Positions 2,085 to 46,621 of a stretch of 51,047 nt of DNA are shown one piece after another. Position numbers and translations under genes: made by a program. The stretch comes from a virus (lineage: Duplodnaviria > Heunggongvirae > Uroviricota > Caudoviricetes): positions 1-51,047 of the IMG/VR virus record IMGVR_UViG_3300032516_002776; one strand, 5' to 3'. The notes beneath the pieces are model-generated. The model had not been told where the DNA came from and ran no database searches. It saw only the letters and a program-made list of their open reading frames with translations. The stretch's first letter is position 1. Each line of letters begins with the position of its first letter.

Positions 2085-4376
2085 ATGAATAACCACGACA
2101 TATATATCCATCAATACAATGGCTCGGCTTTTGAAGAACGATCAATTTCTGGTTCAAATCTTGTTATTGGCACTGATGTTAATGGCCGATTAATAGGAAA
2201 TAAAGATGTTGGCGTTATTGTTAAGGGCGCTGGCAACAATTCGTCCATGCGTTGCACTAGTGGTAATACCGCGTCAGGAAATTATAGCACGGCTCTTGGC
2301 CGGTGTAATACTGCCGGCGAAGACTATGCAACAGTGGGCGGTGGTTATTGTAATTGTGCTTTCAGAGGAACTTCAACAGTAAGTGGTGGTTATTGTAATT
2401 CGGCAAGTGGTTACAGCGCTGTTGTTAGCGGAGGCGATTGTAATTTGGCTAGTGCCGGCGAAGCAGCAATCGGCGGTGGTTGTGCAAACACTGCTAGTGG
2501 GCCTTATACAACAATTGGCGGTGGTGCTAGTAATACTGCTAGTTCTTATGGTGCAACCGTGAGTGGTGGTTATTTTAATTCTGCTAGTGCTTATGGTGTA
2601 ACCGTGAGTGGTGGTGGCTATAATACTGCTAGTGGTTCAGGTGCAACGGTGAGTGGAGGTTGGTTTAATTCTGCTAGTTCTTATGCTGTAACCGTGAGTG
2701 GTGGTAAATGTAATACTGCTAGTTGTAAGTATGCAACAGTTGGTGGTGGTGAATGTAATACTGCTAGTGGTCTTTATGCAATCATAGGTGGCGGTTATTG
2801 TAATGCCGCCAGTTGTCAGTATGCAACCGTAAGTGGTGGCCGTGATAATATTGCTTCTGGTAATTCTGCAACGATGAGTGGTGGTTATACTAATACTGTT
2901 AGTGGTAATTATTCCGTAATAGGTGGTGGAGAATTGAATAATGCTAGTGGTTGTTATGCAACTGTGGGGGGTGGTAAATGTAATACTGCTAGTGGTCTTT
3001 ATACAATCATAGGTGGCGGTTTTTGTAATACTGTCAGTGCTTCTTATATTTCAACCGTAGCTGGCGGTCGAGGTAACATTATATGTACTGGCGGTGGTGG
3101 CAACACAATTAGTGGCGGTGCCAATAATACTGCTAGTACTATTTATACAACAATTTCAGGTGGATATTGCAATTCTGCTAGTGCTAGGTATGCAACTGTG
3201 GGCGGCGGTTGTTATAATTCTGCTGTCGGTTGTTCTTCTACAATTGGTGGGGGTATTGGTAATACTGTTAGTGGTAATTATTCAACGGTGGGTGGTGGTG
3301 CTGGCAATGCAATTTTAAATTGTTGCGATACAAATTCTAGTTATTATACTACTTTTGGAAGCAATGCTGGAACGATTGGCGGTGGTACAAGCAACACAAT
3401 TATTCATTGCATTGCTAATGTTAGTATTTGTGGTGCTATTGCTTGCGGTAACAATACTATTGGTGGTGGTTCTAATAATACTGCCGGATATACCATTAAT
3501 GGAAATTTTCAATGCTCTGGTTTTGCAACAGTTGGTGGTGGTTCTAATAATACTGCTACTCATTTAGGAACAACAATTGCTGGTGGTAAAGCCAATCTTG
3601 CTAGTTGTAAGTTTGCAACAGTGGGCGGTGGATGTAGCAATACTGCTAGTTGTAATTATTCAACGGTGAGTGGTGGTTATAATAATACTACTAGTGGCTT
3701 TTCAACAACAATCGGCGGTGGCTGTGGTAATACTGCTAGTTATAATTATGCAACAGTGGGCGGTGGATGTAGCAATACTGCTAGTGGTTATTACACAACA
3801 GTTGGTGGTGGCTGTGGTAATACTGCTAGTGGTGTTTATTCAACGATAGCTGGTGGTGACCAGAATAATAGTAGTGGTATGTATGCTACGATTGCTGGCG
3901 GTGGTGGCAATCTTGCTACTGGTTTATATGCAACAATAGGCGGAGGTTGGGGTAATACTGCTAGTAATAATTCTGCAACGGTAAGTGGTGGTTATATTAA
4001 TATTGCTAGTGGTGTTTATTCAACAGTAAGTGGTGGTCAAGTTAATACTGCTAGTTGTAAGTATGCAACAGTAAGCGGCGGCTATAAAAATATTGCTAGT
4101 GGTTCATATGCAACAATTGGTGGTGGTTGTAACAATCTTGCTGACGGAGATAGAAGTGGAATTTTGGGCGGTGCCAACAATAATATGTGTGGTGCAAGTG
4201 ATTCATTTATTGTTGGTTCGAATATACTTGCAACGGCTGTATGTACTACTTTTGTTAATAATTTGAATGTTGAGAATAATATAACCGCGGCAACATTTGT
4301 TGGTGGTAATTGTAATGTTAGTGGAAGCGGCACTGTATTACACTTCTGCCGAGGATTGTTTGTATGCGCAACATAA
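2085..4376 (+). CDS. Fibre/adhesin-like protein with about 40 Gly/Cys-rich ~15-aa repeats (YadA-head-like beta-roll)
   Basis: Tandem repeats of consensus ATVGGGxxNTASGxY visible throughout the translation; located among virion genes. Confidence 0.7.
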   Translation: MNNHDIYIHQYNGSAFEERSISGSNLVIGTDVNGRLIGNKDVGVIVKGAGNNSSMRCTSGNTASGNYSTALGRCNTAGEDYATVGGGYCNCAFRGTSTVSGGYCNSASGYSAVVSGGDCNLASAGEAAIGGGCANTASGPYTTIGGGASNTASSYGATVSGGYFNSASAYGVTVSGGGYNTASGSGATVSGGWFNSASSYAVTVSGGKCNTASCKYATVGGGECNTASGLYAIIGGGYCNAASCQYATVSGGRDNIASGNSATMSGGYTNTVSGNYSVIGGGELNNASGCYATVGGGKCNTASGLYTIIGGGFCNTVSASYISTVAGGRGNIICTGGGGNTISGGANNTASTIYTTISGGYCNSASARYATVGGGCYNSAVGCSSTIGGGIGNTVSGNYSTVGGGAGNAILNCCDTNSSYYTTFGSNAGTIGGGTSNTIIHCIANVSICGAIACGNNTIGGGSNNTAGYTINGNFQCSGFATVGGGSNNTATHLGTTIAGGKANLASCKFATVGGGCSNTASCNYSTVSGGYNNTTSGFSTTIGGGCGNTASYNYATVGGGCSNTASGYYTTVGGGCGNTASGVYSTIAGGDQNNSSGMYATIAGGGGNLATGLYATIGGGWGNTASNNSATVSGGYINIASGVYSTVSGGQVNTASCKYATVSGGYKNIASGSYATIGGGCNNLADGDRSGILGGANNNMCGASDSFIVGSNILATAVCTTFVNNLNVENNITAATFVGGNCNVSGSGTVLHFCRGLFVCAT
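2260..4200 (+). repeat. Degenerate ~45-nt coding tandem repeat array (ggtggtggttgtaatactgctagt-like)
   Basis: Recurrent 'aatactgctagt' and 'gcaacagtgggcggtgg' units in the DNA; boundaries approximate. Confidence 0.8.
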
Positions 4377-4729
4377 AGCAATTACTATTAATTATACCAG
4401 CGATATTTTTGCTCAATTCATGCGCATTAAATTCTACCTTGGTTAAAATTGGTAAAAGTGCAGATGCAATAGCTATGGTAGCGAGCAACGATATACCGCA
4501 GACACTTGCTTGTGCGAATGAAATATTATTAGAATCAAAAAAGACGGTCACAGCAACCACAGATATAATTAATCAAACAAAAGATAATCAAAAAGAATGG
4601 CACAAGATTTTAATAGATAATTGGTATGTAATTGTATTAATTATATTATTGTTATTTTTTGGTTTTTCCAAACATACATTTAAAACGGCTGGTATAGCTA
4701 TGTATCAAGGGTTGCGAATGAGAAAATAA
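4364..4729 (+). CDS. Lipoprotein with C-terminal transmembrane helix (unimolecular-spanin-like topology)
   Basis: Signal peptide with lipobox LNSC (Cys20); hydrophobic 'WYVIVLIILLLFFGF' followed by a basic tail. Confidence 0.5.
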   Translation: MRNIKQLLLIIPAIFLLNSCALNSTLVKIGKSADAIAMVASNDIPQTLACANEILLESKKTVTATTDIINQTKDNQKEWHKILIDNWYVIVLIILLLFFGFSKHTFKTAGIAMYQGLRMRK

Positions 4730-4798
4730 AATAAGTTTTTATAGTATAAAAAAACTATATAAATATGTAAAGGTTTTATTAAAAAAGTTACTAAAGTT

Positions 4799-5677
4799 AT
4801 GAAAAATCCAAAGTATGTTATTTTTGATGCGAGTGGCGGAATCGGCAAACATATTGCAGCAACAGCGGTTGTTAAAAATATAAAGTTAGCATATCCTGAT
4901 TCTAAATTGATTGTTGTTGCGGCGTGGCCTAGAGTTTTCATTGGCCATCCGGATGTTTGGCGAGTATTTGGAAATGGGGAGCTTAGGTATTTTTATGAAG
5001 ACTATATCAAAGACAAAGACTTTTTGTTTTTAAAATCTGAACCTTATCATCACACCGATTACATAAAGAAAGAAAAACATTTGGTTGAAGTTTGGACAGA
5101 GCAATGTGGTGTGCCTGTTGTTGAAACTATTCCACGATTGTATTTGAATGACCGGGAGATTCAATTTTACAATGGAAAATATGCAACTGATAAACCCTTG
5201 TTAGTTTTACAAAGCAATGGTGGAATGAATTTACCATTTCCGTATAGTTGGACGCGGGATATGCCTGTGGATTTTGTAATAAAAGTGTTAAATATATTAA
5301 AAACAAAATATCAAATCCTACATTTGAGAAGTGCTAATCAGCCACAGTTTGAAGGTACATTTAGTGTAACTAGTGATGATATTCGTGAACTTTTTGGAGT
5401 TGTAAATTTAAATTGTAAGCGACTATTAATTGATAGTTTTGGACAGCATGCTTCTGCGGCGTTGGGTAAAGAAGCAACGGTATTATGGCCAATTGATAAT
5501 ACTAAAATACTTGGATATCCATCAAACATTAATATTGTTTCAAAAACAATGACGCTTCAGTTTCAACGGCCTTACGCATATATTGAAGATTATAGATTGG
5601 AAGGTCCCTTACATGACTATCCATTTAATGACATGGAATTATTCAATCCAACAGAAATCGCGGAGGCATTATTATGA
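4799..5677 (+). CDS. Glycosyltransferase, GT9 (heptosyltransferase-like, GT-B fold)
   Basis: N-terminal 'GGIGKHIAATAVVKNIKLAYPDSKLIV' and C-terminal 'IDSFGQHASAALGKEATVLW' match the GT9 GxGD...DSGxxHxAAA pattern. Confidence 0.7.
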   Translation: MKNPKYVIFDASGGIGKHIAATAVVKNIKLAYPDSKLIVVAAWPRVFIGHPDVWRVFGNGELRYFYEDYIKDKDFLFLKSEPYHHTDYIKKEKHLVEVWTEQCGVPVVETIPRLYLNDREIQFYNGKYATDKPLLVLQSNGGMNLPFPYSWTRDMPVDFVIKVLNILKTKYQILHLRSANQPQFEGTFSVTSDDIRELFGVVNLNCKRLLIDSFGQHASAALGKEATVLWPIDNTKILGYPSNINIVSKTMTLQFQRPYAYIEDYRLEGPLHDYPFNDMELFNPTEIAEALL

Positions 5678-6513
5678 TAAATGAAAAGAATATATTTTTT
5701 AATAGTTCGATGCCTCGATCAATGTCAACATTATTTCAAAATATATTGATGCAAAATCCAGAGATTTATTCTACGCCGACAGATGGCAGTTTGGAATTGT
5801 TGTATGGTGCACGAATGAATTTTACAAGTTCTCCTGAATTTAAGGCGCAAGATCAGACATTGATGTTATTGGCCTGGCGTGGATTTTGTTATGCAGCTTT
5901 ACAGGGTTATGCAAATGGGCTGACTGCTCGGCCAAATATTTGTATTAAAAGTAGAGGAATTGGTATACATTATGATTGGTATAATGCCTTTTTCACACAA
6001 CACAATAAACCACTAAGAATATTTTGTATGGTTCGAGATTTGCGCCAAATTTTTAGTTCTATGGAAAAAATATATAGATTAAATCAAGAGAAACATCAGA
6101 ACATTCAAGATCATATTAATATGGCAGGCACTACTACCGCAAAAAGAATTGATTCGTGGATTGCTTCGCCTCCAATTGGATTAGCTTTGGAAAGACTTGA
6201 GCAAGTAATGCGTGAAGGTAAAGATAAAAATATTTTCTTTATCCGTTCAGAAGATTTAACTTCAACACCCGAAGATGCAATGAAGAAAGTTTATGATTAT
6301 TTGGAGATGCCTGTTTATAATCATAATTTTGATGAAGTCGAACAATATACTGTTGAAGATGATGATGTCTATGGCTTAACAAAATCATTACATAAGATTC
6401 GTAAAAAAGTTGAACCTGTAAAGAAGGATTATTTAGAGGTTCTTGGAAAAGAGTCAAGCGATTGGATAAATGGTCGCTTTGCTTGGTATCAAAAATACTT
6501 CAAATATACATAA
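5674..6513 (+). CDS. Sulfotransferase family protein
   Basis: PAPS-binding-like 'SSMPRSMSTLFQNIL', 'MVRDLRQIFSS', 'RSEDL..TPEDAMKKVYDYL'. Confidence 0.75.
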   Translation: MINEKNIFFNSSMPRSMSTLFQNILMQNPEIYSTPTDGSLELLYGARMNFTSSPEFKAQDQTLMLLAWRGFCYAALQGYANGLTARPNICIKSRGIGIHYDWYNAFFTQHNKPLRIFCMVRDLRQIFSSMEKIYRLNQEKHQNIQDHINMAGTTTAKRIDSWIASPPIGLALERLEQVMREGKDKNIFFIRSEDLTSTPEDAMKKVYDYLEMPVYNHNFDEVEQYTVEDDDVYGLTKSLHKIRKKVEPVKKDYLEVLGKESSDWINGRFAWYQKYFKYT

Positions 6514-6514
6514 T

Positions 6515-6820
6515 ATGGAAACTACAACTACAAATACTGCTGACGGACAAGTTATTAAGTTTAATCAAGAAGAATTGGATAAATTTAAGGTGCTTGAAAG
6601 AAAATATCAAGAAAGTATATTTCAGTTTGGTCAACTATATTTAGAACAATTAAGTATAGAAGACCAGTCAAAGAACTTAAAAATTGCACAAGAAAAGCTA
6701 ACCACTGATCATTTAGATATACAGAAAGAAGAGAGGGATTTTCTGACAACACTGGCAAATAAATATGGTGAGGGCTCATTGTCTTTGGCTGATGGCACCT
6801 TCATTCCTACTAAGAAATAA
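6515..6820 (+). CDS. Small coiled-coil hypothetical protein
   Basis: Start moved to ATG 6515 (the track's 6470 start overlaps the upstream gene); heptad-rich helix ending 'KYGEGSLSL'. Confidence 0.6.
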   Translation: METTTTNTADGQVIKFNQEELDKFKVLERKYQESIFQFGQLYLEQLSIEDQSKNLKIAQEKLTTDHLDIQKEERDFLTTLANKYGEGSLSLADGTFIPTKK

Positions 6821-6866
6821 TCGGTTTTTTATCTAAAAAAATGTGTTGTTTCAAAAAATATTGGCA

Positions 6867-6874
6867 TATTTATA
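6867..6874 (+). promoter_or_regulatory. Putative late-promoter motif TATTTATA (sheath)
   Basis: 55 nt upstream of the sheath ATG. Confidence 0.55.
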
Positions 6875-6929
6875 CTTAGATTTTAAATTATATTTTTAAA
6901 ATATAAGCAAATAAACAAAGGAATAACAT

Positions 6930-9900
6930 ATGCCAATCACAGAAGGTGGAAGATTTAGCCCAGTCGATACTATAGTAAGTCCTGGAGTGTTCACAAGAGA
7001 AAACGACTTAAGCGGTCTAGCTCAAGGCGTTGCCAATATTGGTGGAGCAGTTGTTGCGCCCTTTGCACGCGGCCCCGCTTTTACACCAACTCTTGTTACG
7101 GATGTCAATGAACTTGAATCAAAGTTCGGTCTTGCTGATGGAGTTTATTATGGTCCATATACAGCAAAACAATATCTACAAGAACAAGGCCGCGTAACAG
7201 TCTGCCGTGTTGGTGGTTTAACAGGCTATTATCAAAAAAATCCATATATGATTTATGCGTATCCTGGCACATGGACACGAGCTAATTGGCAGTTATTTAT
7301 AGATACGGGAAGCTTGAGTTCTTATATTGAAAGTAGTGTAGGTAATACAGATCCATTTGATGTGCTAACTTATACTTCCGCCTCAGGTATAACTTCTTCT
7401 TTAGCAGTAGCAGGAACTCTTTTTGCAACATTTACATCAATAACTGCTAGTAATTTGCCTGCTGGTTCTGGAAGTGCATATGCTGGCCAAACATTCGATG
7501 TAGGTACTTTTACTATAACATTGTCGGGTAGCCAATTTTATCTTACTTCTAGCATACAAGGAGATGGGGCTCAGTCACAAGAACAAAAATTACTACAAGC
7601 AATTGTTGAGAGCCAAACAAATATGAGTTTTCTAAGTGGTTCTTATACTGGAAAAATTCCTATAGTTGCTTCATCTACCTTTGGTGGAAGTGACATTTAT
7701 CTGGTTAATCCAAGTTTTGCAGTTTTTCGAGCGGCTGGTGGCTGCGGTTCTGTGTTGTATTTGGTTAGTGGTTCGGTTAGTGGTTCATTTGGTGATTACA
7801 CAGGAACATTTGCGTGGTCCGGCGGATTAAATTCAGATCCATGTGCTACTCCAACTGACAGTGGCAGTGTTCAGATTCTTGCAGTATTGGCAAATACACA
7901 ATATGTTTCTCAAGATTCTACTGATTTAAGTTTGGCAGGATTTAGTGGTTCAACCTTGACTCAAGTTCTAGCGGCAGGTTATACTGCGGCCGATGTTGTA
8001 AATGGTAAAAAATTCAATTTACTATTGAAAGATGGTATAAGTAATACGACATTTGGAACATATGAATTTTCATTAAATCGTACAGATAATGAGTATATAA
8101 CATCTGTATTCGGCAATGATGCTACGGCTGGCAATCCTGCTCTCTTTGTGAGAGGGCAAAAGATAGAAGCGGCATATTTGTATTCTATTTTCCAAGACAC
8201 CATTGATAAAGTTGTTGCTGAACCATGGAATTGGTTAATTGCTGGTGGCGTTTCTATTGTGCCTCAATCAGGCAGCACAACTCAAGCAAGAATTGGAGAT
8301 TTGTTGAACTTTACTGATGCTAATTCTTTGAATATTTCCGCTGGCGACAGTGCATTTTCTATAACAAATGCTTATACGCCTTGGATAAATTCTCAAGGAA
8401 TCGCTAACTGGGCAGGAAGCACAGGCGGCACAGCAAAGACTCGTTTCCCATTGTTTAGAGTTAATACTTTAGGTGATGGTACAGTAGAGAATAAGCGGGT
8501 TAAGATTGAAATCAGCAATGTAAAACTTGCTGGAACTGTTCCTGGTTCTGAATTTGGTTCGTTTACTTTGTCGGTGCGAGATTATAATGATACAGATAAA
8601 CGTCCTAAGACATTTGAAATATTCCAAAACTTGAATCTGGATCCAAATTCTGCAAACTTTATTGCTAGAAGAATTGGTGACAGATTTAATTATATAACCT
8701 TCGCGGGTAAAATAATTGAATTTGGTACATATGCTAATTTGAGCCGTTATATTAGAATTGAAATGACGGAAAATGTTTATCCTGATACCGCTGTTCCTTA
8801 TGGTTTTGCTGCTTACGCAACTCCTATTGACAGCAATTATGGAAAATTTATTCCAAAAATGCTATACAGTAAGGCCTCAACCTATTCTAGTCAGCCTGGA
8901 AAATATCCATCGGGATTAGTCTTTGGTGACCCTCCGGTTGGAGCAGATCAAGTATTACTTGATTTATATCCCGAAACGACAACGGGGGTTGGTGTTGATA
9001 TTGATACAAAACAATATTTCAACTCATTGCCAGCATTTGGTGCTAACATATCTGTAGGTGCTAATGTTCCATTCGATTTGGAAGATGACCTTACAGAAGG
9101 TGGTGTAACCGCTGGAAACAGTGTACCATCCATCTATGATGTTGCTAATGAGACAACATATGTTAAAATGCGTAAGTTTGTTCTTGGATTCCAAGGCGGT
9201 TTCGATGGTCAATGGCCGGGAATTCCAATCAATGTTGGTTCAGATATTATCGCAGGTAATACTCAAGGCCTTGACTGCACAGGAATTACAAGTGCGGGCA
9301 GTATTGCTTACAAACAATGCATTGCAGCTTTAGGTAATTCAGAAGAATGGGATATTAATCTTGTTGTTCTTCCTGGTATTTTCTCAAGCTTACACATTTA
9401 TGTAGCAAATCAAGTTGTTGAAATGTGTGAAGATCGTGGTGATTGCTTCTATATTATGGATAATGTTGTATTCCCAGCAAGTAATCAATCGACAGGAATG
9501 ATTGACGCAGCCGTTGCTGAAGCTGAAAAGTTTGATACAAGCTATGCTGCTACTTATTATCCTTGGGTTAGAATTCTTGATGTAAACACTAATAAAATTG
9601 TAAGTGTTCCTCCTTCGGTTGTAATGCCAGGAGTTTACGCAGCTAATGATAGAGCTTCCGCTGAATGGTTTGCTCCAGCAGGATTAAACCGTGGCGGTAT
9701 TACTCAAGCAATTCAAGTTCTTGATAGAACAACGCACGCAGACCGCGATGTTCTTTATGAGGGACGTGTTAATCCAATTGCAGCATTCCCAGGCCAAGGC
9801 ATTTGCGCGTGGGGTCAAAAGACTCTGCAAGTTAAGGCCAGCGCTTTGGATAGAGTTAATGTTCGTAGATTGCTGATTGCTTTGAAGAAGTATATTGCAA

Positions 9901-10169
9901 GCACAAGCCGATACTTGGTATTTGAGCAAAATGTAGCGGCTACACGAAATAGCTTCTTGGGTATTGTTAATCCATATCTTGAAAGTGTACAGCAACGCAG
10001 TGGCCTGTATGCCTTCCAAGTTGTAATGGATGATACAAATAATACGCCGGACATAATTGATAGAAATATCCTGTATGGACAAATCTATCTACAACCAGCA
10101 AAGACTGCTGAATTTATTGTGTTGGACTTCAATGTAATGCCTACCGGCGCTACATTCGCCAATCTATAA
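6930..10169 (+). CDS. Contractile tail sheath protein (gp18-like)
   Basis: N-terminal 'SPGVFTRENDLS', C-terminal 'WFAPAGLNRG', 'VNPIAAFPGQGICAWGQKTLQ', 'RVNVRRLLI', 'LQPAKTAEFIVLDF'; SD AAGGA upstream. Confidence 0.97.
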   Translation: MPITEGGRFSPVDTIVSPGVFTRENDLSGLAQGVANIGGAVVAPFARGPAFTPTLVTDVNELESKFGLADGVYYGPYTAKQYLQEQGRVTVCRVGGLTGYYQKNPYMIYAYPGTWTRANWQLFIDTGSLSSYIESSVGNTDPFDVLTYTSASGITSSLAVAGTLFATFTSITASNLPAGSGSAYAGQTFDVGTFTITLSGSQFYLTSSIQGDGAQSQEQKLLQAIVESQTNMSFLSGSYTGKIPIVASSTFGGSDIYLVNPSFAVFRAAGGCGSVLYLVSGSVSGSFGDYTGTFAWSGGLNSDPCATPTDSGSVQILAVLANTQYVSQDSTDLSLAGFSGSTLTQVLAAGYTAADVVNGKKFNLLLKDGISNTTFGTYEFSLNRTDNEYITSVFGNDATAGNPALFVRGQKIEAAYLYSIFQDTIDKVVAEPWNWLIAGGVSIVPQSGSTTQARIGDLLNFTDANSLNISAGDSAFSITNAYTPWINSQGIANWAGSTGGTAKTRFPLFRVNTLGDGTVENKRVKIEISNVKLAGTVPGSEFGSFTLSVRDYNDTDKRPKTFEIFQNLNLDPNSANFIARRIGDRFNYITFAGKIIEFGTYANLSRYIRIEMTENVYPDTAVPYGFAAYATPIDSNYGKFIPKMLYSKASTYSSQPGKYPSGLVFGDPPVGADQVLLDLYPETTTGVGVDIDTKQYFNSLPAFGANISVGANVPFDLEDDLTEGGVTAGNSVPSIYDVANETTYVKMRKFVLGFQGGFDGQWPGIPINVGSDIIAGNTQGLDCTGITSAGSIAYKQCIAALGNSEEWDINLVVLPGIFSSLHIYVANQVVEMCEDRGDCFYIMDNVVFPASNQSTGMIDAAVAEAEKFDTSYAATYYPWVRILDVNTNKIVSVPPSVVMPGVYAANDRASAEWFAPAGLNRGGITQAIQVLDRTTHADRDVLYEGRVNPIAAFPGQGICAWGQKTLQVKASALDRVNVRRLLIALKKYIASTSRYLVFEQNVAATRNSFLGIVNPYLESVQQRSGLYAFQVVMDDTNNTPDIIDRNILYGQIYLQPAKTAEFIVLDFNVMPTGATFANL

Positions 10170-10188: not shown

Positions 10189-10219
10189 AAAGCCGTGGTT
10201 GAAAAATCACGGCTTTTTT
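10189..10219 (+). terminator. Intrinsic terminator after sheath gene (probably bidirectional)
   Basis: aaagccgtggtt-gaaa-aatcacggcttt hairpin followed by a T run. Confidence 0.85.
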
Positions 10220-10379
10220 ATTTAGTACTTAAGCAGTACTTGTACTATTTTTTATAATCTTAATTTAAACTATTAACCAACTAATGCCTATTGCTTATTG
10301 CTTAAGCGGAATAACATGAAGAATATGACTTTTAAACAGCAAGTCAACTTTTAATATTTTATTACTATATTTATACTAA

Positions 10380-10901
10380 ATGGCTAATACCGACAGAATA
10401 TTATATCTCGATATGGATGGCGTGATTTCAGACTTTAACAAGCAAGTGATTAAATACACTAAATTGTCACTGGGAGAGCCCTTGGACAGCGATTTATTAA
10501 CGCAAAAATACGGCCGGAAGGAGCTTTTAACGATAATGGACTCTGGAGGGGAGGAATTCTTTTCTGAGATGCCTATTATGAAGGATATGTATGAGTTAAA
10601 GTCCTTCATTTTTAACAATTTTATAAATATTAAGATACTCAGTTGTATCAAGGGAAATCCTCCTGCCACTGATAGAATAAATGGTAAACTTAAATGGTTA
10701 AAGACTTATAGTTTCAATTTACCAGATGCCAATATTATACTTATAGATAAGAGTGTAAATAAGCAAAAATATGCTAGACCAAATGACATTTTAATAGATG
10801 ATATGGAAATAAATATAAATCAATGGAATCAGCGCGGTGGGATTGGAATATTACATAAAAATTCCAAAGATACAATCAGGCAACTTAGCCAATATGTCTA
10901 A
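10380..10901 (+). CDS. HAD-family 5'(3')-deoxyribonucleotidase
   Basis: Motif I 'LYLDMDGVISDF', motif IV 'ILIDD', 'W..RGGIGILH'. Confidence 0.85.
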   Translation: MANTDRILYLDMDGVISDFNKQVIKYTKLSLGEPLDSDLLTQKYGRKELLTIMDSGGEEFFSEMPIMKDMYELKSFIFNNFINIKILSCIKGNPPATDRINGKLKWLKTYSFNLPDANIILIDKSVNKQKYARPNDILIDDMEININQWNQRGGIGILHKNSKDTIRQLSQYV

Positions 10902-12357
10902 TAATATAAAAGATAAATTTAAAATTTACAACAATACTCTAGATCCGTTACTCTGGGATTCGGCCGGAAATCTTAAACCAGATGTTGCGAAACAATTGCT
11001 GACAATTGCTAATGAATTTTATGAAAGCTTGGAAATCAAACCATTGCTACGCAATGTAATACTTCTTGGTTCTGCTGCATCATTCAACTATAGTGCAAAA
11101 AGTGATATAGATATTCACTTGGTAATAGATTTTAAAGAGTTGGACATGGAAAATGAGGATGCGCATAAATATGTTAATGCATTAAAATCGGTATGGAATG
11201 ACAAACATGATATTCATATAAAAGGAAAAAATGTTGAAGTTTACATTCAGGATGTAAAACATATTACTCATGCCAACGGCATTTATTCATTATTAAATTC
11301 GATTTGGCTGAAAAAACCTATAAAAGAAAATACTGGAATAGTTGATAAGGAGCTTATAAAACAAAAATATAACGATATGGTTTATAAGATAGTCAATTTG
11401 GAAAAATCCACAGGAGACAACAAAACAAAAATTGAAAAAATAAAACAAATTCTCACCGACATATATGTAATGCGGCAAGCAGGTTTGGATTCTGCGGGAG
11501 AATTGAGCACAGAGAATATAGTTTTTAAGTTACTAAGACATCGTAATTTTATCAAACGATTGAAAGATTTAAAAGATGTTTTGTATGATAAAGCTCTATC
11601 GTTGAATGAAGCAATAGAGGCAAACTTACAAGTTAAAAAAGATAAAATTAGTGACCGCTTGACCAGATTTTTTCTATGGAATGGGGGACAAAAAGTTGGG
11701 AAGTTAGCAGTCAATCGTGGATTATATGAAAATTATTATGTAATTTCATCGTTTATTGTTCACAACAAAGCAGATCGCGGCCGTGGTTATGGCTCAAAAT
11801 TAATAAAAGCTGTTTTGGCGGATAAAGATTATGCTGATAGACCGCTGATTGTTAAACCAGAACCATATTATGATGATGACACAACAGTTTCAGAATTAAT
11901 GGATATGTATAAAAAGTTTGGGTTTATACCGTGGAAAGAAGATTTAAATTATATGATTTATAATAGACCATTGAATGAAAACATAAAGATTGATAATATT
12001 AATGGTATCGGTGCTGTTCCGTGGAATCAAGAAGTGAACTATCGAGGCTTTAAGCGTTATATGACGCCGAATGAATTTTTGAAACTTGCGTTGCCTATTT
12101 ACGAAAAAGAATCTATAGATTTTTATATAAATTTAATCAAAAAAGATGGGATAGCATCGCCGTGGTTAGAAGTTGATTGGAATAAAAAATTAAAATGTTG
12201 GAGAACAGTTGGCCACGAAGGAAGGCATAGAATGGCCGCAGTGCAAAAAATTTCTCCAAATGAAAAAATAGAAATCCATGTGTTTCCCCGTGGTATGAGA
12301 GCAAAAGACTTGACAGATGATATGAAAAATGCCATAATATTAAAACAATTAAAATGA
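10894..12357 (+). CDS. Three-domain protein: Pol-beta-type nucleotidyltransferase + GNAT acetyltransferase + ParB/Srx-like domain, joined by LNE sites
   Basis: 'LLGSAASFNYSAKSDIDIH' (GS..DxD); 'RGRGYGSKLI...MYKKFGF' (GNAT motifs A/B); 'GHEGRHRMAA' (ParB-like). Start moved to ATG 10894, which overlaps the upstream stop. Confidence 0.75.
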   Translation: MSNNIKDKFKIYNNTLDPLLWDSAGNLKPDVAKQLLTIANEFYESLEIKPLLRNVILLGSAASFNYSAKSDIDIHLVIDFKELDMENEDAHKYVNALKSVWNDKHDIHIKGKNVEVYIQDVKHITHANGIYSLLNSIWLKKPIKENTGIVDKELIKQKYNDMVYKIVNLEKSTGDNKTKIEKIKQILTDIYVMRQAGLDSAGELSTENIVFKLLRHRNFIKRLKDLKDVLYDKALSLNEAIEANLQVKKDKISDRLTRFFLWNGGQKVGKLAVNRGLYENYYVISSFIVHNKADRGRGYGSKLIKAVLADKDYADRPLIVKPEPYYDDDTTVSELMDMYKKFGFIPWKEDLNYMIYNRPLNENIKIDNINGIGAVPWNQEVNYRGFKRYMTPNEFLKLALPIYEKESIDFYINLIKKDGIASPWLEVDWNKKLKCWRTVGHEGRHRMAAVQKISPNEKIEIHVFPRGMRAKDLTDDMKNAIILKQLK

Positions 12358-12854
12358 AAACAAAATTAAAACAATTAATACCAGAAATAAATAAAAGTCT
12401 AAAAAGATTTTATGTGGCATACAATGAATATTCAGAGGTGACACGGCCTAGGAGTCCTGACGATGAGTGGGATGCTGATGATATTCTTACCACTGTTGAA
12501 TTTGAAAATGCCTTTATTGCTATTGATGGAGACACCGCTGGCAAGCACACTGTAGATGTTACATCTTATGCGGCGAGCGATGGTACTAGCGACCACTATT
12601 TCAGAGAAATGGATATAGAATGGAATGAAAATTTTGATGATATATATCTTGTTTACGCAAGATATTCAGATGGAGATACCTTTCATAGAGAAGAGGGCAA
12701 GTGGGCAGTAATTGCAGCTTTTTCAGATATTCATAAAGCAAAAACTTGGATAAAGAGGAATGAAGAAATTGTTGGTAAGAATTTTAGCGGATATTTTGAG
12801 AGATATCATGGCTTACACATTGAAAAATTACCATTTAAAAACTATACGATATGA
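12354..12854 (+). CDS. Hypothetical protein with N-terminal KLKQLI motif
   Basis: Starts MKTKLKQLIPEINK; acidic body with no recognised family. Confidence 0.55.
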   Translation: MKTKLKQLIPEINKSLKRFYVAYNEYSEVTRPRSPDDEWDADDILTTVEFENAFIAIDGDTAGKHTVDVTSYAASDGTSDHYFREMDIEWNENFDDIYLVYARYSDGDTFHREEGKWAVIAAFSDIHKAKTWIKRNEEIVGKNFSGYFERYHGLHIEKLPFKNYTI

Positions 12855-13391: not shown

Positions 13392-14903
13392 TTAAATTCT
13401 ATTAGTAAATATCCATTTGCTGTTGCCACAATCCCAAATTCTATCATAGCCATTTAATTTCATATTTTCCCATTCACTCAATTTTGGATCAAAGGTTTTT
13501 AGAATCTTTTTTAACTTATGCTTTTGAAAACTCATGCGATTTTTTAAATCCTTATAATTGTTGATTATATAACTATATCCAGGAGGTGTGTGGTCTACAA
13601 AATTAAACCCTAATTTTTTATATAAATTACCATGAAAATATCTCCTATCACAATATGAAACAATATTTTTTGGTGCATAATTTTGAATGAAATAAACAAA
13701 TAATTTACTGGCGCCTCCATTAACTATGGTGTTTGTTTTGTTACAAAACCTTGTTAATTCCCACTGAAAGCATTTTTCAAATCGAGAACCTTTTCTAAAT
13801 GTCATAATAGACACCAAATCGGTTTTGTGATATAACCCAATTTTTATTGTAGATTTATCCTCTCCTTGTAAATGATTGCGGTTTAAAAATTCATTCTTTT
13901 CTTTTTCAGTCACTTCTATAATGCTACACTCGCGCGCATTAATTTTATCTATAACAGAAACATTTAATAAATTTTTAATTATAGATTTTACAATTTCTTC
14001 CTTATATAACCATTCATTTTCAAATATGTGTATAAGATTAATTCCATGATAAGCGCAGGATTTGGTTTTATTTAAATGATAAAGCCTGTTTGTTTCTCCT
14101 GAATTTTCACTGTGCCAATATAAACCATTTATCTCAAAAGCATATTTTTTGTCGGGAATATAAAAATCTAATTCCTTTCCAACTAATATTGTTCTATCAT
14201 TCCGTTTTATAATTGTTTCTTTATCAACTATTTCTTGAAGAAATTTATAAAATTTATTTTCAACGGTGGTTATTTTCTCAGGCTCACAATAATCACAGAA
14301 TAAATTATTTAAATTATACACAGTAGTTTCTAAAATTTTATTACAATTTAAACATTTTAATTTGTATAAATTACTAAAATGGTATCCTTTATAATCAACT
14401 TTAGAACACAATAACTCAAGCTTCTTATCTTTGCAAAAATTTATCAAAAAATCATAGTGATTAGATTTTTTAGTCAATGTGGTTTGTTCAACAATAGTTT
14501 TAGATTTTTGAGGATTATCTACACCATACCGAGATAACATAGTAGATTTTATCTTTTTTATGTTGTTATAATTTTCGATACCATACCTGTCTTTTAATGT
14601 TGCTTTAACGTTAATAATAAAATTAGGCATTTTTGCTGGATGATCAACACCATATTTATTTAACATTGATCGCTTAAAGGTGTCTTGAACCTTTTTTGTT
14701 TGCATTGGATGTTCGACGCCATATTTTTTTAAATAAGTCTTTTTTTGACTTTCACGCATTTTGTTAAGAACCGAAGGCGCGTGCTGTGCACATGTTTTAC
14801 TACAATATACTTGATGTTTTTTTTCATATTTGATGTTAAAATCCTTGCCACAAGTTGGACAACGATTAATTACAGTCAGTGGATTCTTTTTTGGTCTAGC
14901 CAT
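13392..14903 (-). mobile_element. Putative homing-endonuclease-like gene (Hef-like: Zn finger, KYGV repeats, Vsr/PD-(D/E)xK nuclease, C-terminal GNAT-like domain)
   Basis: CPTC..YCSKTC zinc finger; repeated KYGVEHP/KYGVDHP/RYGIEN/RYGVDNP; 'ELDFYIPDKKYAFEINGLYWHS'; 'IVSYCDRRYFHGNLYKKLGF'; opposite strand, inserted just upstream of the tube gene. Confidence 0.7.
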
Positions 14904-19354: not shown

Positions 19355-20629
19355 TTGATGAGAACGATTGCAATATATCCTGGACGATGGCAACCTTGGC
19401 ATAAAGGTCATAAGGCAAGTTATGATTATTTAGTTGCTCAATATGGTCTTGAGAACGTTTATATTACATCCACGGATGTTACAGATTCATATAAATCTCC
19501 ATTTACATTTGAAGAAAAGAAAGAGATGATGGTATTATCAGGAATTCCTGCTGATAAGATTCTTTTGGTAAAGCAACAATACAATTTAAAAGCGGTTGCG
19601 CCATTAATAGCTGGATTTAATATGAATACCGATAGAGTATTATTTGCTATATCAAGAAAGGATATGTTAAGCGACCCACGATTTAATAATTTTATGTTAA
19701 AAAGCGGACAGCCTGCTTATTTGCAGCCTGCTCCAGAAGATGTTACAAAAATTGAGCCAGCCGTAAAGCATGGTTATCTGATAGTAGTACCAACTAAGAT
19801 GTTTTCGGTATTAGGAAATGCGGTGAAATCTGCATCAGGTTTAAGGGATATGTATAAGAAACTTACGCCTGAGAAAAAGAAACAATTTATAATTGATTTA
19901 TTTGGTAAATTTGACAAGAATGTTTTTACTATGTTGAATAATAAATTGAGTGGAAACATTAAATTAAAACCTATTGCTGAAGCCCTTTTGGAAGCACATG
20001 GAGAATATAAAGGTTGGAAATTAACCTATTATCCAATTGGTTCGCAACACTGGAAAGCAAGTCGCTTTGGTGTAAATATGTGTGCGAATTCAAAAGAATT
20101 GTTAATACAAATGATTGATAATAGAAAAGACGATTTAAAAGAAGATGAGAGCAAACCACTTGAATCTGGTTGGTATGAATACAGAATACTTGGTATTGCG
20201 CCTGAAGTACCAGAGGGACATGAATTTCGTAGCAAAATAGCTGATTTGGAAAATCATCCCTACTTATGGGCAGATGAGTGCCCATACTCATTTCGTGACC
20301 GTGGCCAAATAAGTGTAAAAAAGAATGATGCATTAAAAGAAGATGATGGGGAAATTGCTCCGCATTCAAAAGATGCACAAAGAGCAAATGTTTTAGCTGC
20401 TACACAAATGATTAAAGCAAAGCAATTCAATACTAAAGATGCTCAAGATTCTTTAAAAACCGCAAAAGATAAATTTTTAAATACAAAATCGACAGATGAA
20501 CCGGATGTAGTAGACCGAGCAAAGGAAACAATGAAGCAAAAGGAATTATCTTTAAAAGCGCAAAAAAACAATTTAGCCGCTGCGCAAAAGAAATTAGTAG
20601 CAGTTAAACAAGGAAGTCCATTGTCATGA
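19355..20629 (+). CDS. HIGH-motif (cytidylyltransferase-like) nucleotidyltransferase with C-terminal accessory modules
   Basis: 'IAIYPGRWQPWHKGH', 'SPFTFEEK', 'SASGLR'; then LLE, LKE, LKE sites and a coiled-coil tail. Confidence 0.75.
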   Translation: MMRTIAIYPGRWQPWHKGHKASYDYLVAQYGLENVYITSTDVTDSYKSPFTFEEKKEMMVLSGIPADKILLVKQQYNLKAVAPLIAGFNMNTDRVLFAISRKDMLSDPRFNNFMLKSGQPAYLQPAPEDVTKIEPAVKHGYLIVVPTKMFSVLGNAVKSASGLRDMYKKLTPEKKKQFIIDLFGKFDKNVFTMLNNKLSGNIKLKPIAEALLEAHGEYKGWKLTYYPIGSQHWKASRFGVNMCANSKELLIQMIDNRKDDLKEDESKPLESGWYEYRILGIAPEVPEGHEFRSKIADLENHPYLWADECPYSFRDRGQISVKKNDALKEDDGEIAPHSKDAQRANVLAATQMIKAKQFNTKDAQDSLKTAKDKFLNTKSTDEPDVVDRAKETMKQKELSLKAQKNNLAAAQKKLVAVKQGSPLS

Positions 20630-21645
20630 AATTATTAGGTTTAATACCCAATACTTGCTTTAACATATTGACCGAAGGAATGGAATCGGATTATTATGTT
20701 AAGAAAACCACTCCCGACGAGGTTGCTGATTTATTATTGCGTGGCCATTATCTTGAAGCGTGGCCGTTTGCTGGCTCCGATTTTAAAAATTACATTTATG
20801 GAATTTACATTAGAAGCTCGGCAAATAAAACTGCCTTGCTTGGACTTGATGTAGCCACTAATGATTCTTTGGTGGGCTGTGTGGTTTATGGTTATGCAGA
20901 ACCTCATGCATCTTCTTATGTTTCCAAATGGGTGCGTGGCTTATTAAATCCTGATGAAACAGTTGATTCAATCTATGATAATTTAAGAAATATTGTAAAG
21001 AAAGATTCCGAAGAAGAAGTAAAAGCAAAGCAACGCGGTTATGAATATAAGTCAAAAGCAAAGCCGGTTGTATTAAATTTGTTGAATTCGACGAATATTC
21101 AAGACGCTCAAATTCTTGAGCTTAAACGATTGTATATTCTTCCAAAATTTGACACAAAAAATATAGAATCATTTTCTATTGCTAAGGCCAATGAATTTAT
21201 TTTTCAAGACAATCCAATGGTGCAAGCTATTTTGTCATTTTCCGATTCAAGAGTGGGTCACCACGGAGGAATTTATCAGGCAACAAATGCGGTATATGCA
21301 GGAATAACAAAACACAAATTACATCGGTATGTATACCTACGGGATAGTCTGACCAATTTAATCAAGAAATACCGAACGGCTTATGATGAATTAGTGTTTA
21401 ATTATCCAAAGAAAGATGACCTTAAAATTCCTATACAAAAATTGGGACCGGTCGATGATAAAACAAAAGGTGAGCGAGCATCTTTAGTAGCATTAAAGAC
21501 TAAATTGGCCAGTTTAACTGACCCAGCATTAAAGACAGCGTATCAAAATGTAATAAAGCACCTTGAGCAGCCAGAACAAGGTATGTTTGATCTTAGAAAA
21601 CAGAAGAAACTGGCAGAAGATAATGATGAGGAAATAAACATATGA
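20626..21645 (+). CDS. Mom-like GNAT-fold (DNA-modifying acetyltransferase-like) protein
   Basis: 'ELKRLYI', 'ILSFSDSRVGHHGGIYQATNAVYAG' parallel the protein at 46622; N-terminal 'ILTE' site. Confidence 0.6.
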   Translation: MKLLGLIPNTCFNILTEGMESDYYVKKTTPDEVADLLLRGHYLEAWPFAGSDFKNYIYGIYIRSSANKTALLGLDVATNDSLVGCVVYGYAEPHASSYVSKWVRGLLNPDETVDSIYDNLRNIVKKDSEEEVKAKQRGYEYKSKAKPVVLNLLNSTNIQDAQILELKRLYILPKFDTKNIESFSIAKANEFIFQDNPMVQAILSFSDSRVGHHGGIYQATNAVYAGITKHKLHRYVYLRDSLTNLIKKYRTAYDELVFNYPKKDDLKIPIQKLGPVDDKTKGERASLVALKTKLASLTDPALKTAYQNVIKHLEQPEQGMFDLRKQKKLAEDNDEEINI

Positions 21646-45872: not shown

Positions 45873-46583
45873 ATGGATAAAGGTTATACGATTTCAGTTT
45901 TAGACCATCATGGGTTTGTGCGTTATATAGACCATATGGGTACAGACCAAAGAATTTGTGAAGCGGCTAGAATAAGCTATAAGTCTCCAAGTAAGGGAGA
46001 AGATTCCGATAAGAAATTAATCGAATATCTTTGGAAGAATAAACACACAAGCCCCTTCGAGATGATAAAATTAACTCTGAATATCAAAATGCCAATCTTT
46101 GTGATGCGGCAGTATGTTAGACACCGGATGCAGAATTTAAATGAAGTCAGTGCACGATATACGGAATTACCGAATGAGTTTTATATACCAAAAGAATGGA
46201 GAAAACAAGATGGTAAGAATAAGCAAGGAAGTGTAAACGAAGAAAAATTCAATCCTAAATTGTGGGCAGATAGATATAAAGACGCTACGAATGCAGTTTA
46301 TTTACATTGCTCAGAATCTTATGCTCTTTATGAAAATTTAATTGATGCTGGTATTGCAAGAGAAATGGCTCGGATGGTGTTGCCTCTAAACATTTATACC
46401 GAAATCTACGCATGTTGGGATATGAAAAACCTCTTACATTTTATAACATTGCGTGGTGATGAACATGCGCAATGGGAAATACAAGAATACAGCAGGGCTA
46501 TTAAGTCTATTTGTAAAGAATTATTTCCTATGACAATGGAAGCTTATGAGAAATATAAGTGGAAGTTGATTGAAGAAATATAA
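45873..46583 (+). CDS. thyX: Flavin-dependent thymidylate synthase
   Basis: RHR-x7-SAR motif 'RHRMQNLNEVSARY', 'HTSPFE', 'EMARMVLP', 'HAQWEI'. Confidence 0.95.
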   Translation: MDKGYTISVLDHHGFVRYIDHMGTDQRICEAARISYKSPSKGEDSDKKLIEYLWKNKHTSPFEMIKLTLNIKMPIFVMRQYVRHRMQNLNEVSARYTELPNEFYIPKEWRKQDGKNKQGSVNEEKFNPKLWADRYKDATNAVYLHCSESYALYENLIDAGIAREMARMVLPLNIYTEIYACWDMKNLLHFITLRGDEHAQWEIQEYSRAIKSICKELFPMTMEAYEKYKWKLIEEI

Positions 46584-46584
46584 A

Positions 46585-46612
46585 TTGACTTTTTATTGTT
46601 TTTGGGTATAAT
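46585..46612 (+). promoter_or_regulatory. Sigma70-like promoter
   Basis: TTGACT-N16-TATAAT, 9 nt before ATG 46622. Confidence 0.65.
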
Positions 46613-46621
46613 TCTTGTGGT

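Follow-up and report, generated by a model that had tools for sequence, protein, structure and literature searches.

The 51,047-nucleotide (nt) stretch analysed here, referred to below as the window, covers positions 1-51,047 of IMG/VR record IMGVR_UViG_3300032516_002776, which spans 115 kb, is 38% complete and comes from an uncultured T4-like phage. An open reading frame (ORF) on its plus strand, 10894-12357, encodes P0001, a protein of 487 amino acids (aa) in which a nucleotidyltransferase (NTase), a GNAT acetyltransferase and a ParB/sulfiredoxin (Srx)-like domain, hereafter X, are joined in one chain, with the tripeptide LNE at both internal borders. Each LNE represents, at its own border, a motif that marks module edges throughout the families, [LIVM]-x-E. 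This motif agrees with the rule by which T4-type prohead proteases cut and with the ends of capsid-targeting leaders. Tentatively, and with slightly less than even confidence, we favour the reading that P0001 itself acts uncut, as a multi-domain, nucleotide-directed enzyme which has inherited its joint motifs.

The full-length AlphaFold2 model of P0001 has a predicted local distance difference test score (pLDDT) of 92.8 and a predicted template modelling score of 0.61; the modules are predicted to be well folded, with their mutual orientation uncertain. In the model a helix (residues 219-235) is followed by a coil (236-240), the GNAT sheet and helices (241-356), a second coil (357-365) and the third module (366-487). 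The NTase signature GS...SDID lies at residues 59-73, and G59-S60, D71, D73 and the third carboxylate, E115, are invariant or nearly so among NTase homologues. This module matches PHROG 36119 (E 3.8e-34, residues 12-237), and its fold is matched by Foldseek to AadA (5g4a) and AAD(9) (6xz0) at E 5.6e-4 over 256-276 columns; its Pfam scores (MTPAP-like 17.9, Polbeta 16.9, NTP_transf_2 13.9 bits) are all below the families' own cut-offs. In the second module the sequence RGRGYGSKL (295-303) contains the R-x-x-G-x-G acetyl-CoA loop (R295-G300), of which G300 is invariant in homologues. Foldseek returned many GNAT structures for this module at E about 1e-4, with AcrVA5 (6iuf) at a TM score of 0.75, and the Pfam scores are just under gathering (Acetyltransf_7, 24.9 vs 27 bits; Acetyltransf_1, 19.7 vs 20.7 bits); a word search found no stand-alone GNAT relatives of it.

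Module X, when modelled alone with 136 relatives, also gave a pLDDT of 92.8. Its top structural matches all belong to the ParB/Srx superfamily, with Srx first (Z 6.7) and then Noc, ParB, SerK, SbnI, PadC, KorB and Osa, although the scores are moderate (Foldseek E 5e-3; VIA Z 4-6.7; 76-88 residues aligned at a root mean square deviation of about 3.3). The sequence GHEGRHR is at 440-446, and across 136 X sequences G443 and R446 are invariant and H441 and R444 nearly so. No ParB-type Pfam family, including ddrB-ParB, was detected at E up to 0.1 in P0001 or in 81 X-containing relatives, neither half of P0001 had a meaningful sequence match among PDB chains, and Pfam and PHROG revealed no peptidase domain in or adjoining P0001. 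An earlier note, made from the letters of the window, had listed these three signatures, two identical ttgaatgaa stretches and coupling to a HAD gene behind a TATTTATA motif, and all were confirmed in the sequence with their coordinates. Its proposal of three independent folds of the kinds named is likewise supported, at moderate scores in the case of X.

The two ttgaatgaa stretches, at 11602-11610 and 11971-11979, encode L237-N238-E239 and L360-N361-E362. Their placement was judged from the AlphaFold2 secondary structure and block pLDDT, by which both fall in the only two interdomain coils of P0001 and not inside a fold, as the earlier note had proposed. In 100,000 shuffles of P0001, two or more LNE arose with p = 0.021 and [LIV]xE in both coils with p = 0.004; the total of [LIV]xE in the protein is ordinary (6 vs about 7 expected). 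The glutamate is also retained at both borders in homologues. At border 1, S236 and E239 are invariant in 12/12 close homologues, 237 is L, I or V and 238 varies freely, and at border 2 [LV]-x-E is kept in 4/4 with a variable middle residue.

The NTase family was found at 564 or more viral loci, and its members occur alone, with GNAT (P0004-6), with GNAT and X (P0002, P0003), or directly with X (P0087). Other partners are a dCMP deaminase (P0070), a 2H/Acb1-like phosphoesterase (L032) and DUF5661 (L005). In about 50 proteins (P0014-P0062, 377-391 aa) an NT5C/HAD domain is fused in frame N-terminal to the NTase and, together with the coupled HAD gene upstream of P0001 in the window, these form a Rosetta-stone link which predicts that both act in one pathway. 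X is represented by 824 clusters, from stand-alone proteins of 135 aa to a module in proteins of up to 3,703 aa, but has no Pfam family and only one match among cultured phage genomes. An X homologue is located at 263311-263685 in Ralstonia phage RsoM2USA. Its partners in 81 multi-domain relatives include GH19 (8), GNAT (6), cell-wall hydrolase (4), dCMP deaminase (4) and ART-PolyVal (3), and further NUDIX, PBECR5, NT5C, cytidylyltransferase and PcfJ. The partners of the NTase and X modules are nucleotide-acting or typical cargo domains, and those of X correspond to the set known from polyvalent proteins (PMC5512222). P0002 continues in frame beyond X with a leader-like peptide (QLNE-DI-MKTNELKKIIKE); this fourth part is not homologous to the product of window gene 12354. 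One check named in the earlier note was whether modules are shuffled while the border motif persists, and [LIVM]xE does stay at the joints across the shuffled homologues.

One motif is common to four kinds of joint: the NTase C-edge, the X N-edge, the stretch following X, and the HAD/NTase junction. Across the wider NTase family S-[LIV]-x-E precedes every type of partner. About 35 stand-alone NTases have it too; they end ...ELS-LNE-Fxx, with 2-6 residues after the Glu, so the motif belongs at least in part to the C-terminus of the NTase domain itself. It is missing from HAD-NTase forms, whose end reads ...LSK(I). At the X N-edge, [LIVM]xE occurs 4-6 residues before the core in 37/75 internal modules and in 24/48 of those behind a short N-terminal leader, where 5.3% would be expected, and in 0/11 proteins which start at the domain itself. 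In 126 X representatives which are at most 50% identical pairwise, its Glu is at -4 from the conserved Asp in 31% and at -5 in 14%, against a background of 1.8% per residue. In a subfamily of X ending in GPLF, [LIVM]xE follows 6-9 residues after GPLF in 18/21 proteins that continue (p = 2e-18), the sequences downstream of it are unrelated, and stand-alone X stops 1-6 residues after GPLF. HAD/NTase fusions carry G-[IV]-K-E at the joint in about 10/12, and the split pair of the window has none. A further idea, that the shared motifs are the leftover of a downstream gene's leader, was rejected, as the 6-9 residues from GPLF to Glu are too few for a leader.

P0001 begins with MSNNIKDKFKIYNN and its first [LIV]xE is at residue 143; no N-terminal leader (6-20 residues ending in (L/I)-x-E) is present in it or in its 12 closest relatives. 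At least nine otherwise unrelated ORFs in the window do start alike, with M-K-K-x-x-L-K-Q-L-I-x-E-[VI]-x-x-E, and this shared N-terminus looks like a family of capsid-targeting leaders. Short amphipathic leaders ending in [LI]-x-E are found on many relatives of both modules, on X proteins (MRATEFITE, MRAQEFVTE, MRLRELLSE) and on NTases (MKFKTFLE, MKLFKFTEFINE, MSFKKLIIESLTIESLLNE), and about 20/46 multi-domain X proteins start with MRAxEF[IL]xE. Four neighbouring genes of L082 (4193-10780) begin MKTFKEFLAE, MKTFKQFLE, MISFKEFLLE and MMLTFKDFLE; the second of these starts is that of P0090, which joins X to GNAT and has MTE and LSE at its joints. The proteins of this run have a repeated N-terminal domain in common, and one of 910 aa has an internal second copy starting SFKTFLE. 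L129 is a T4-like contig on which DNA polymerase B and Phage_DsbA are encoded, and five of its genes in a row (2679-7295) begin MIIREVIE, MRATEFITE, MRATEFINE, MRIRDLTTE and MRYTEFIIE. Among the leader-bearing products of this array are an X protein, a GH19 protein and an ADP-ribosyltransferase (PF03496), and the array resembles an expanded T4 internal-protein locus. Whole leader peptides with their Met (MRAAEFI..., MRATEFITE, MRAHEFITE) were also seen inside longer X-family ORFs (P0216, P0151 and P0143), where they look like fossils of fusions between neighbouring leader genes.

Virion evidence is available for one NTase homologue, gp156 (ORF156) of the T4-like cyanophage S-CREM2, which has the N-terminus MKKLISE and for which 6 unique peptides were recovered from purified virions (PMC10665884, Table 3). 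The cytidylyltransferase gp154, whose N-terminus is MKNFSSFLTE, was likewise found in virions, although the authors state that carry-over of abundant proteins is possible (PMC10665884). The genes for gp154, gp155 and gp156 are adjacent (S-CREM2 124608-126725; L126) and all three products are in the published virion proteome, where the leader-like N-termini of gp154 and gp156 are unmentioned (PMC10665884); gp155 is not homologous to the HAD of the window. An S77 protease is encoded in 4/5 large contigs that carry NTase homologues. Searches for the prohead protease (PF03420) and capsid (PF07068) gave no match in the 115-kb record, but with a record that is 38% complete and controls that gave no signal either this is uninformative, as is the same outcome on five short contigs.

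P0001 belongs to an accessory operon, an insertion that separates the tail sheath gene from the tail tube gene. The order in the window is tail sheath gene (6930-10169), hairpin, HAD/P0001 unit, homing endonuclease (minus strand) and tail tube gene, and sheath, tube and baseplate genes are all present (Pfam/PHROG). The accessory unit runs from the NT5C-type HAD through P0001 and a 166-aa protein starting MKTKLKQLIPE to a membrane protein (Table 1). The hairpin is terminator-like and would split the sheath transcript from the HAD-P0001 unit. P0001 starts (ATG at 10894) in overlap with the end of the HAD gene (stop TAA, 10899-10901), and the two are translationally coupled. The homing endonuclease (503 aa, 13392-14903; PHROG 3339, E 1.9e-115; DUF7487), which lies between the sheath and tube genes, marks an insertion hotspot beside the operon. 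A protein identical to P0001 is encoded on two other contigs (204 kb and 108 kb), and no close DNA relatives of this phage were found in the cultured-phage collection. Elsewhere in the window, 19358-20629 encodes a 423-aa protein without a leader but with an N-terminal cytidylyltransferase-like match (PHROG 395), a family which is virion-associated in cyanophages, and a Mom-like gene (20626-21645) comes after it.

The window holds 19 copies of TATTTATA against 11.4 expected. Plus-strand copies at 69, 901, 6867, 10368, 14985, 16611, 23018 and 47402 lie 3-55 nt 5' of the starts at 83, 912, 6930 (sheath), 10380 (HAD), 15042 (tube), 16638, 23030 and 47424, and several of the genes so preceded are leader-bearing. 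No copy precedes the replication genes of the window, two of which have sigma-70-like boxes in its place. On this basis TATTTATA would be a late promoter element and the operon would be expressed late. Copies 3-6 nt from an ATG would give nearly leaderless transcripts. The sigma-70-like boxes, ttgac...(17)...tataat / tatact, are at 46580-46621 and 49470-49510, ahead of genes 46622 and 49511, and point to a second, different class of promoter for non-structural genes.

Table 1. Features of P0001 and its surroundings in the window.
Feature	Position	Strand	Basis or remark
Terminator-like hairpin and T-run	10190..10220	+	gccgtgg...ccacggc, then T run, read from sequence
TATTTATA motif, candidate late promoter element	10368..10375	+	4 nt 5' of HAD ATG
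NT5C-type HAD 5'-(deoxy)nucleotidase gene	10380..10901	+	Pfam NT5C 27.9 bits (above cut-off); PHROG 2643
Module 1, Pol-beta nucleotidyltransferase core and helical domain, AadA/ANT-like, residues 1-235	10894..11598	+	Motif, PHROG, Foldseek
Joint 1, SLNEA, residues 236-240	11599..11613	+	Coil between helix 219-235 and GNAT; block pLDDT 80-84
Module 2, minimal GNAT acetyltransferase, residues 241-356	11614..11961	+	R-x-x-G-x-G loop, Foldseek
Joint 2, NRPLNENIK, residues 357-365	11962..11988	+	Coil, last GNAT strand to first X bridge; block pLDDT 82-87
Module 3 (X), divergent ParB/sulfiredoxin fold, residues 366-487 and stop codon	11989..12357	+	Model, Foldseek, VIA
Downstream coupled gene	12354..12854	+	ATGA overlap with P0001; N-terminus MKTKLKQLIPE, the phage's shared leader
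Leader-bearing ORF starts	83, 12354, 16638, 16952, 17454, 17861, 21642, 33980, 35443		Shared M-K-K-x-x-L-K-Q-L-I-x-E

P0001 is a polyvalent-type three-enzyme protein whose modules circulate among large T4-like and jumbo phages. The [LIVM]-x-E motif travels with the NTase C-edge and the X N-edge, and in our reading the joints would descend from head-protease sites. More broadly, the sequence comparisons support the view that NTase and X modules are often capsid cargo, the joints being, or descending from, prohead-protease sites. The lineage of P0001 has no targeting leader and is tied to NT5C instead, so that P0001 most likely works uncut, probably whole on nucleotides or nucleotide-derived molecules late in infection. 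The analysis shows the folds, the shuffled modules, the motif statistics, the leaders of relatives and the one virion homologue; we infer late expression, catalytic activity, joint origin and absence of cleavage.

Several points weigh against uncut action. Across the leaderless clade the joint Glu is strictly retained and the middle residue is variable, which looks like a recognition motif still under selection. HAD/NTase fusions carry G-[IV]-K-E though they too are leaderless, which means either that leaderless proteins are also cut or that the motif has another role. The NTase homologue gp156 of S-CREM2 is virion-associated (PMC10665884), a late-type promoter context is odd for a purely metabolic enzyme and would suit a packaged protein, and the wholeness of P0001 is itself inferred.

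The earlier note had read P0001 as a polyprotein, and in the corresponding alternative it would be loaded into the prohead and cut after E239 and E362 by a T4-type protease into three injected host-takeover or anti-defence effectors. We consider this possible but doubtful. It is in keeping with the interdomain position of both LNE and the recurrence of [LIVM]xE at four joint types across families, with the many relatives that are leader-led polyproteins (the MRAxEF[IL]xE X proteins, P0090, the L129 array), and with the S77 protease in 4/5 large NTase contigs and the S-CREM2 virion proteins gp156 and gp154. The late-type promoter context and the frequent fusion of X to cell-wall hydrolases and ART-PolyVal agree with it also, and T4 Alt, an enzyme cut by gp21 at ITE-6 and internally at LTE-619 (PMC5694885), gives a precedent for internal cutting of a packaged enzyme. 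However, a leader is what loads T4 cargo (PMC5694885), and P0001 and its clade have neither a leader nor an [LIV]xE within their first 140 residues. In stand-alone proteins, moreover, no more than 2-6 residues would be lost by a cut at the NTase-edge motif, the folded modules show no depletion of [LIV]xE (4 vs about 7 expected for the whole protein), and the protease of this phage is unseen, its record being 38% complete. The parts of the polyprotein proposal which stand are thus the folds, the coil sites, the shuffled modules, the leaders in relatives, one virion homologue and the late-type motif; what tells against it is that P0001 and its closest relatives are leaderless and that the NTase SLxE is found in stand-alone proteins as well.

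A more general version, to which we give a similarly low degree of belief, is that [LIVM]-x-E serves as punctuation throughout T4-like and large phages and that P0001 is a polyprotein loaded by a non-canonical signal. Cassettes (NTase, GNAT, X, HAD, lysozymes, ADP-ribosyltransferases) would each carry their own head-protease site, and any fusion taken into the prohead would be split into enzymes that are injected separately.

It is unlikely, though less so than pure chance, that P0001 enters the virion by way of the leader-bearing 12354 product or an unrecognised signal and is delivered whole or cut later by a non-prohead protease. Gene 12354 is coupled to P0001 and bears the phage's leader, P0002 has both reading frames fused with a full internal leader, and delivery without processing is known for certain polyvalent proteins, among them the N4 virion RNA polymerase and ArdC (PMC5512222). 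Yet the extra part of P0002 is not homologous to the gene 12354 product, and the Pfam/PHROG searches gave no peptidase domain in or beside P0001. That the two LNE are a meaningless coincidence in an AT-rich, Lys/Asn/Glu/Leu-rich protein is highly improbable and was rejected, since the ordinary [LIV]xE total (6 vs about 7) and identical codons that are unremarkable given codon usage are outweighed by the both-coil placement in the shuffle test (p = 0.004) and by fixed-position conservation in distant relatives (p 1e-18 to 1e-27).

In the bifunctional aminoglycoside-modifying enzyme ANT(3'')-Ii/AAC(6')-IId, an AadA-like nucleotidyltransferase is followed by a GNAT domain in one chain. This is the module order of the NTase-GNAT part of P0001, and the AadA/AAD(9) fold match by Foldseek agrees with it; there is no sequence-level similarity, however, and P0001 is phage-borne and has an additional ParB/Srx module.

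The nearest printed descriptions of such a protein are the T4 cargo loaded by capsid targeting sequences (CTS), the polyvalent proteins, and those head proteins of phiKZ and SPN3US that are cut at several sites. Like the CTS-loaded and gp21-processed IPI, IPII, IPIII and Alt of T4, P0001 belongs to a T4-like phage and its joints fit (L/I)-x-E. The T4 leader MKTYQEFIAE is close to MKTFKEFLAE, MRATEFITE and MKNFSSFLTE of the relatives, and in both cases the cargo consists of varied enzymes. However, T4 cargo is made of single, leader-loaded enzymes, whereas P0001 is a three-enzyme chain without a leader. Polyvalent proteins of phages and conjugative elements were described by Iyer, Burroughs, Anand, de Souza and Aravind in 2017 (PMC5512222), and GNAT, Pol-beta NTase and ParB/Srx domains are all listed among their components; P0001 unites the three in one chain, and at least two unrelated effector-type domains in a single polypeptide are what mark such proteins. 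X is moreover found with ART-PolyVal, PcfJ, PBECR5 and lysozymes, and the P0001 gene adjoins virion structural genes. On delivery into the host with the DNA, another mark of polyvalent proteins, the evidence is indirect: the S-CREM2 virion homologue (PMC10665884) and the fusion of X to lysozymes. It differs in that processing of polyvalent proteins was proposed to be by a built-in zincin-like metallopeptidase (MPTase), whereas P0001 has no peptidase, and in that the polyvalent Pol-beta NTases are minimal and from conjugative elements, whereas that of P0001 is two-domain, AadA-like and from phages (PMC5512222); X also has no match to the polyvalent DdrB-ParB Pfam model. In phiKZ and SPN3US, gp21-related S80 head proteases with the motif S/A/G-x-E cut many internal proteins, some of them repeatedly, and long propeptides are the targeting signals (PMC5694885). 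That motif has a small residue where L/I-x-E is found here, the cuts mainly remove propeptides, and the phages are of another lineage.

The earlier note could not attribute built-in head-protease sites to a described system, and this holds in part. No paper was found which describes L/I-x-E punctuation between enzyme modules, but the internal cut of T4 Alt at LTE-619 (PMC5694885) and the several cuts made in phiKZ and SPN3US head proteins come near to it. What is new here is a quantitative account of the joints of NTase, X and HAD modules, together with the delineation of X as a large ParB/Srx-fold family that has no name, the link between NT5C and the NTase, and a connection of these modules to a published virion proteome.

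The NT5C-NTase link offers a handle on the function of an NTase family with > 560 viral loci. X, a ParB/Srx-fold domain that is widespread yet uncharacterised and has been fused time and again with GNAT, deaminase, lysozyme and ADP-ribosyltransferase modules, lends itself well to biochemical study. Should the joints prove to be true protease sites, they would explain how polyvalent proteins without a peptidase of their own are dismantled, and [LIVM]-x-E together with a leader would allow the injected enzyme cargo of uncultured T4-like phages to be read from sequence.

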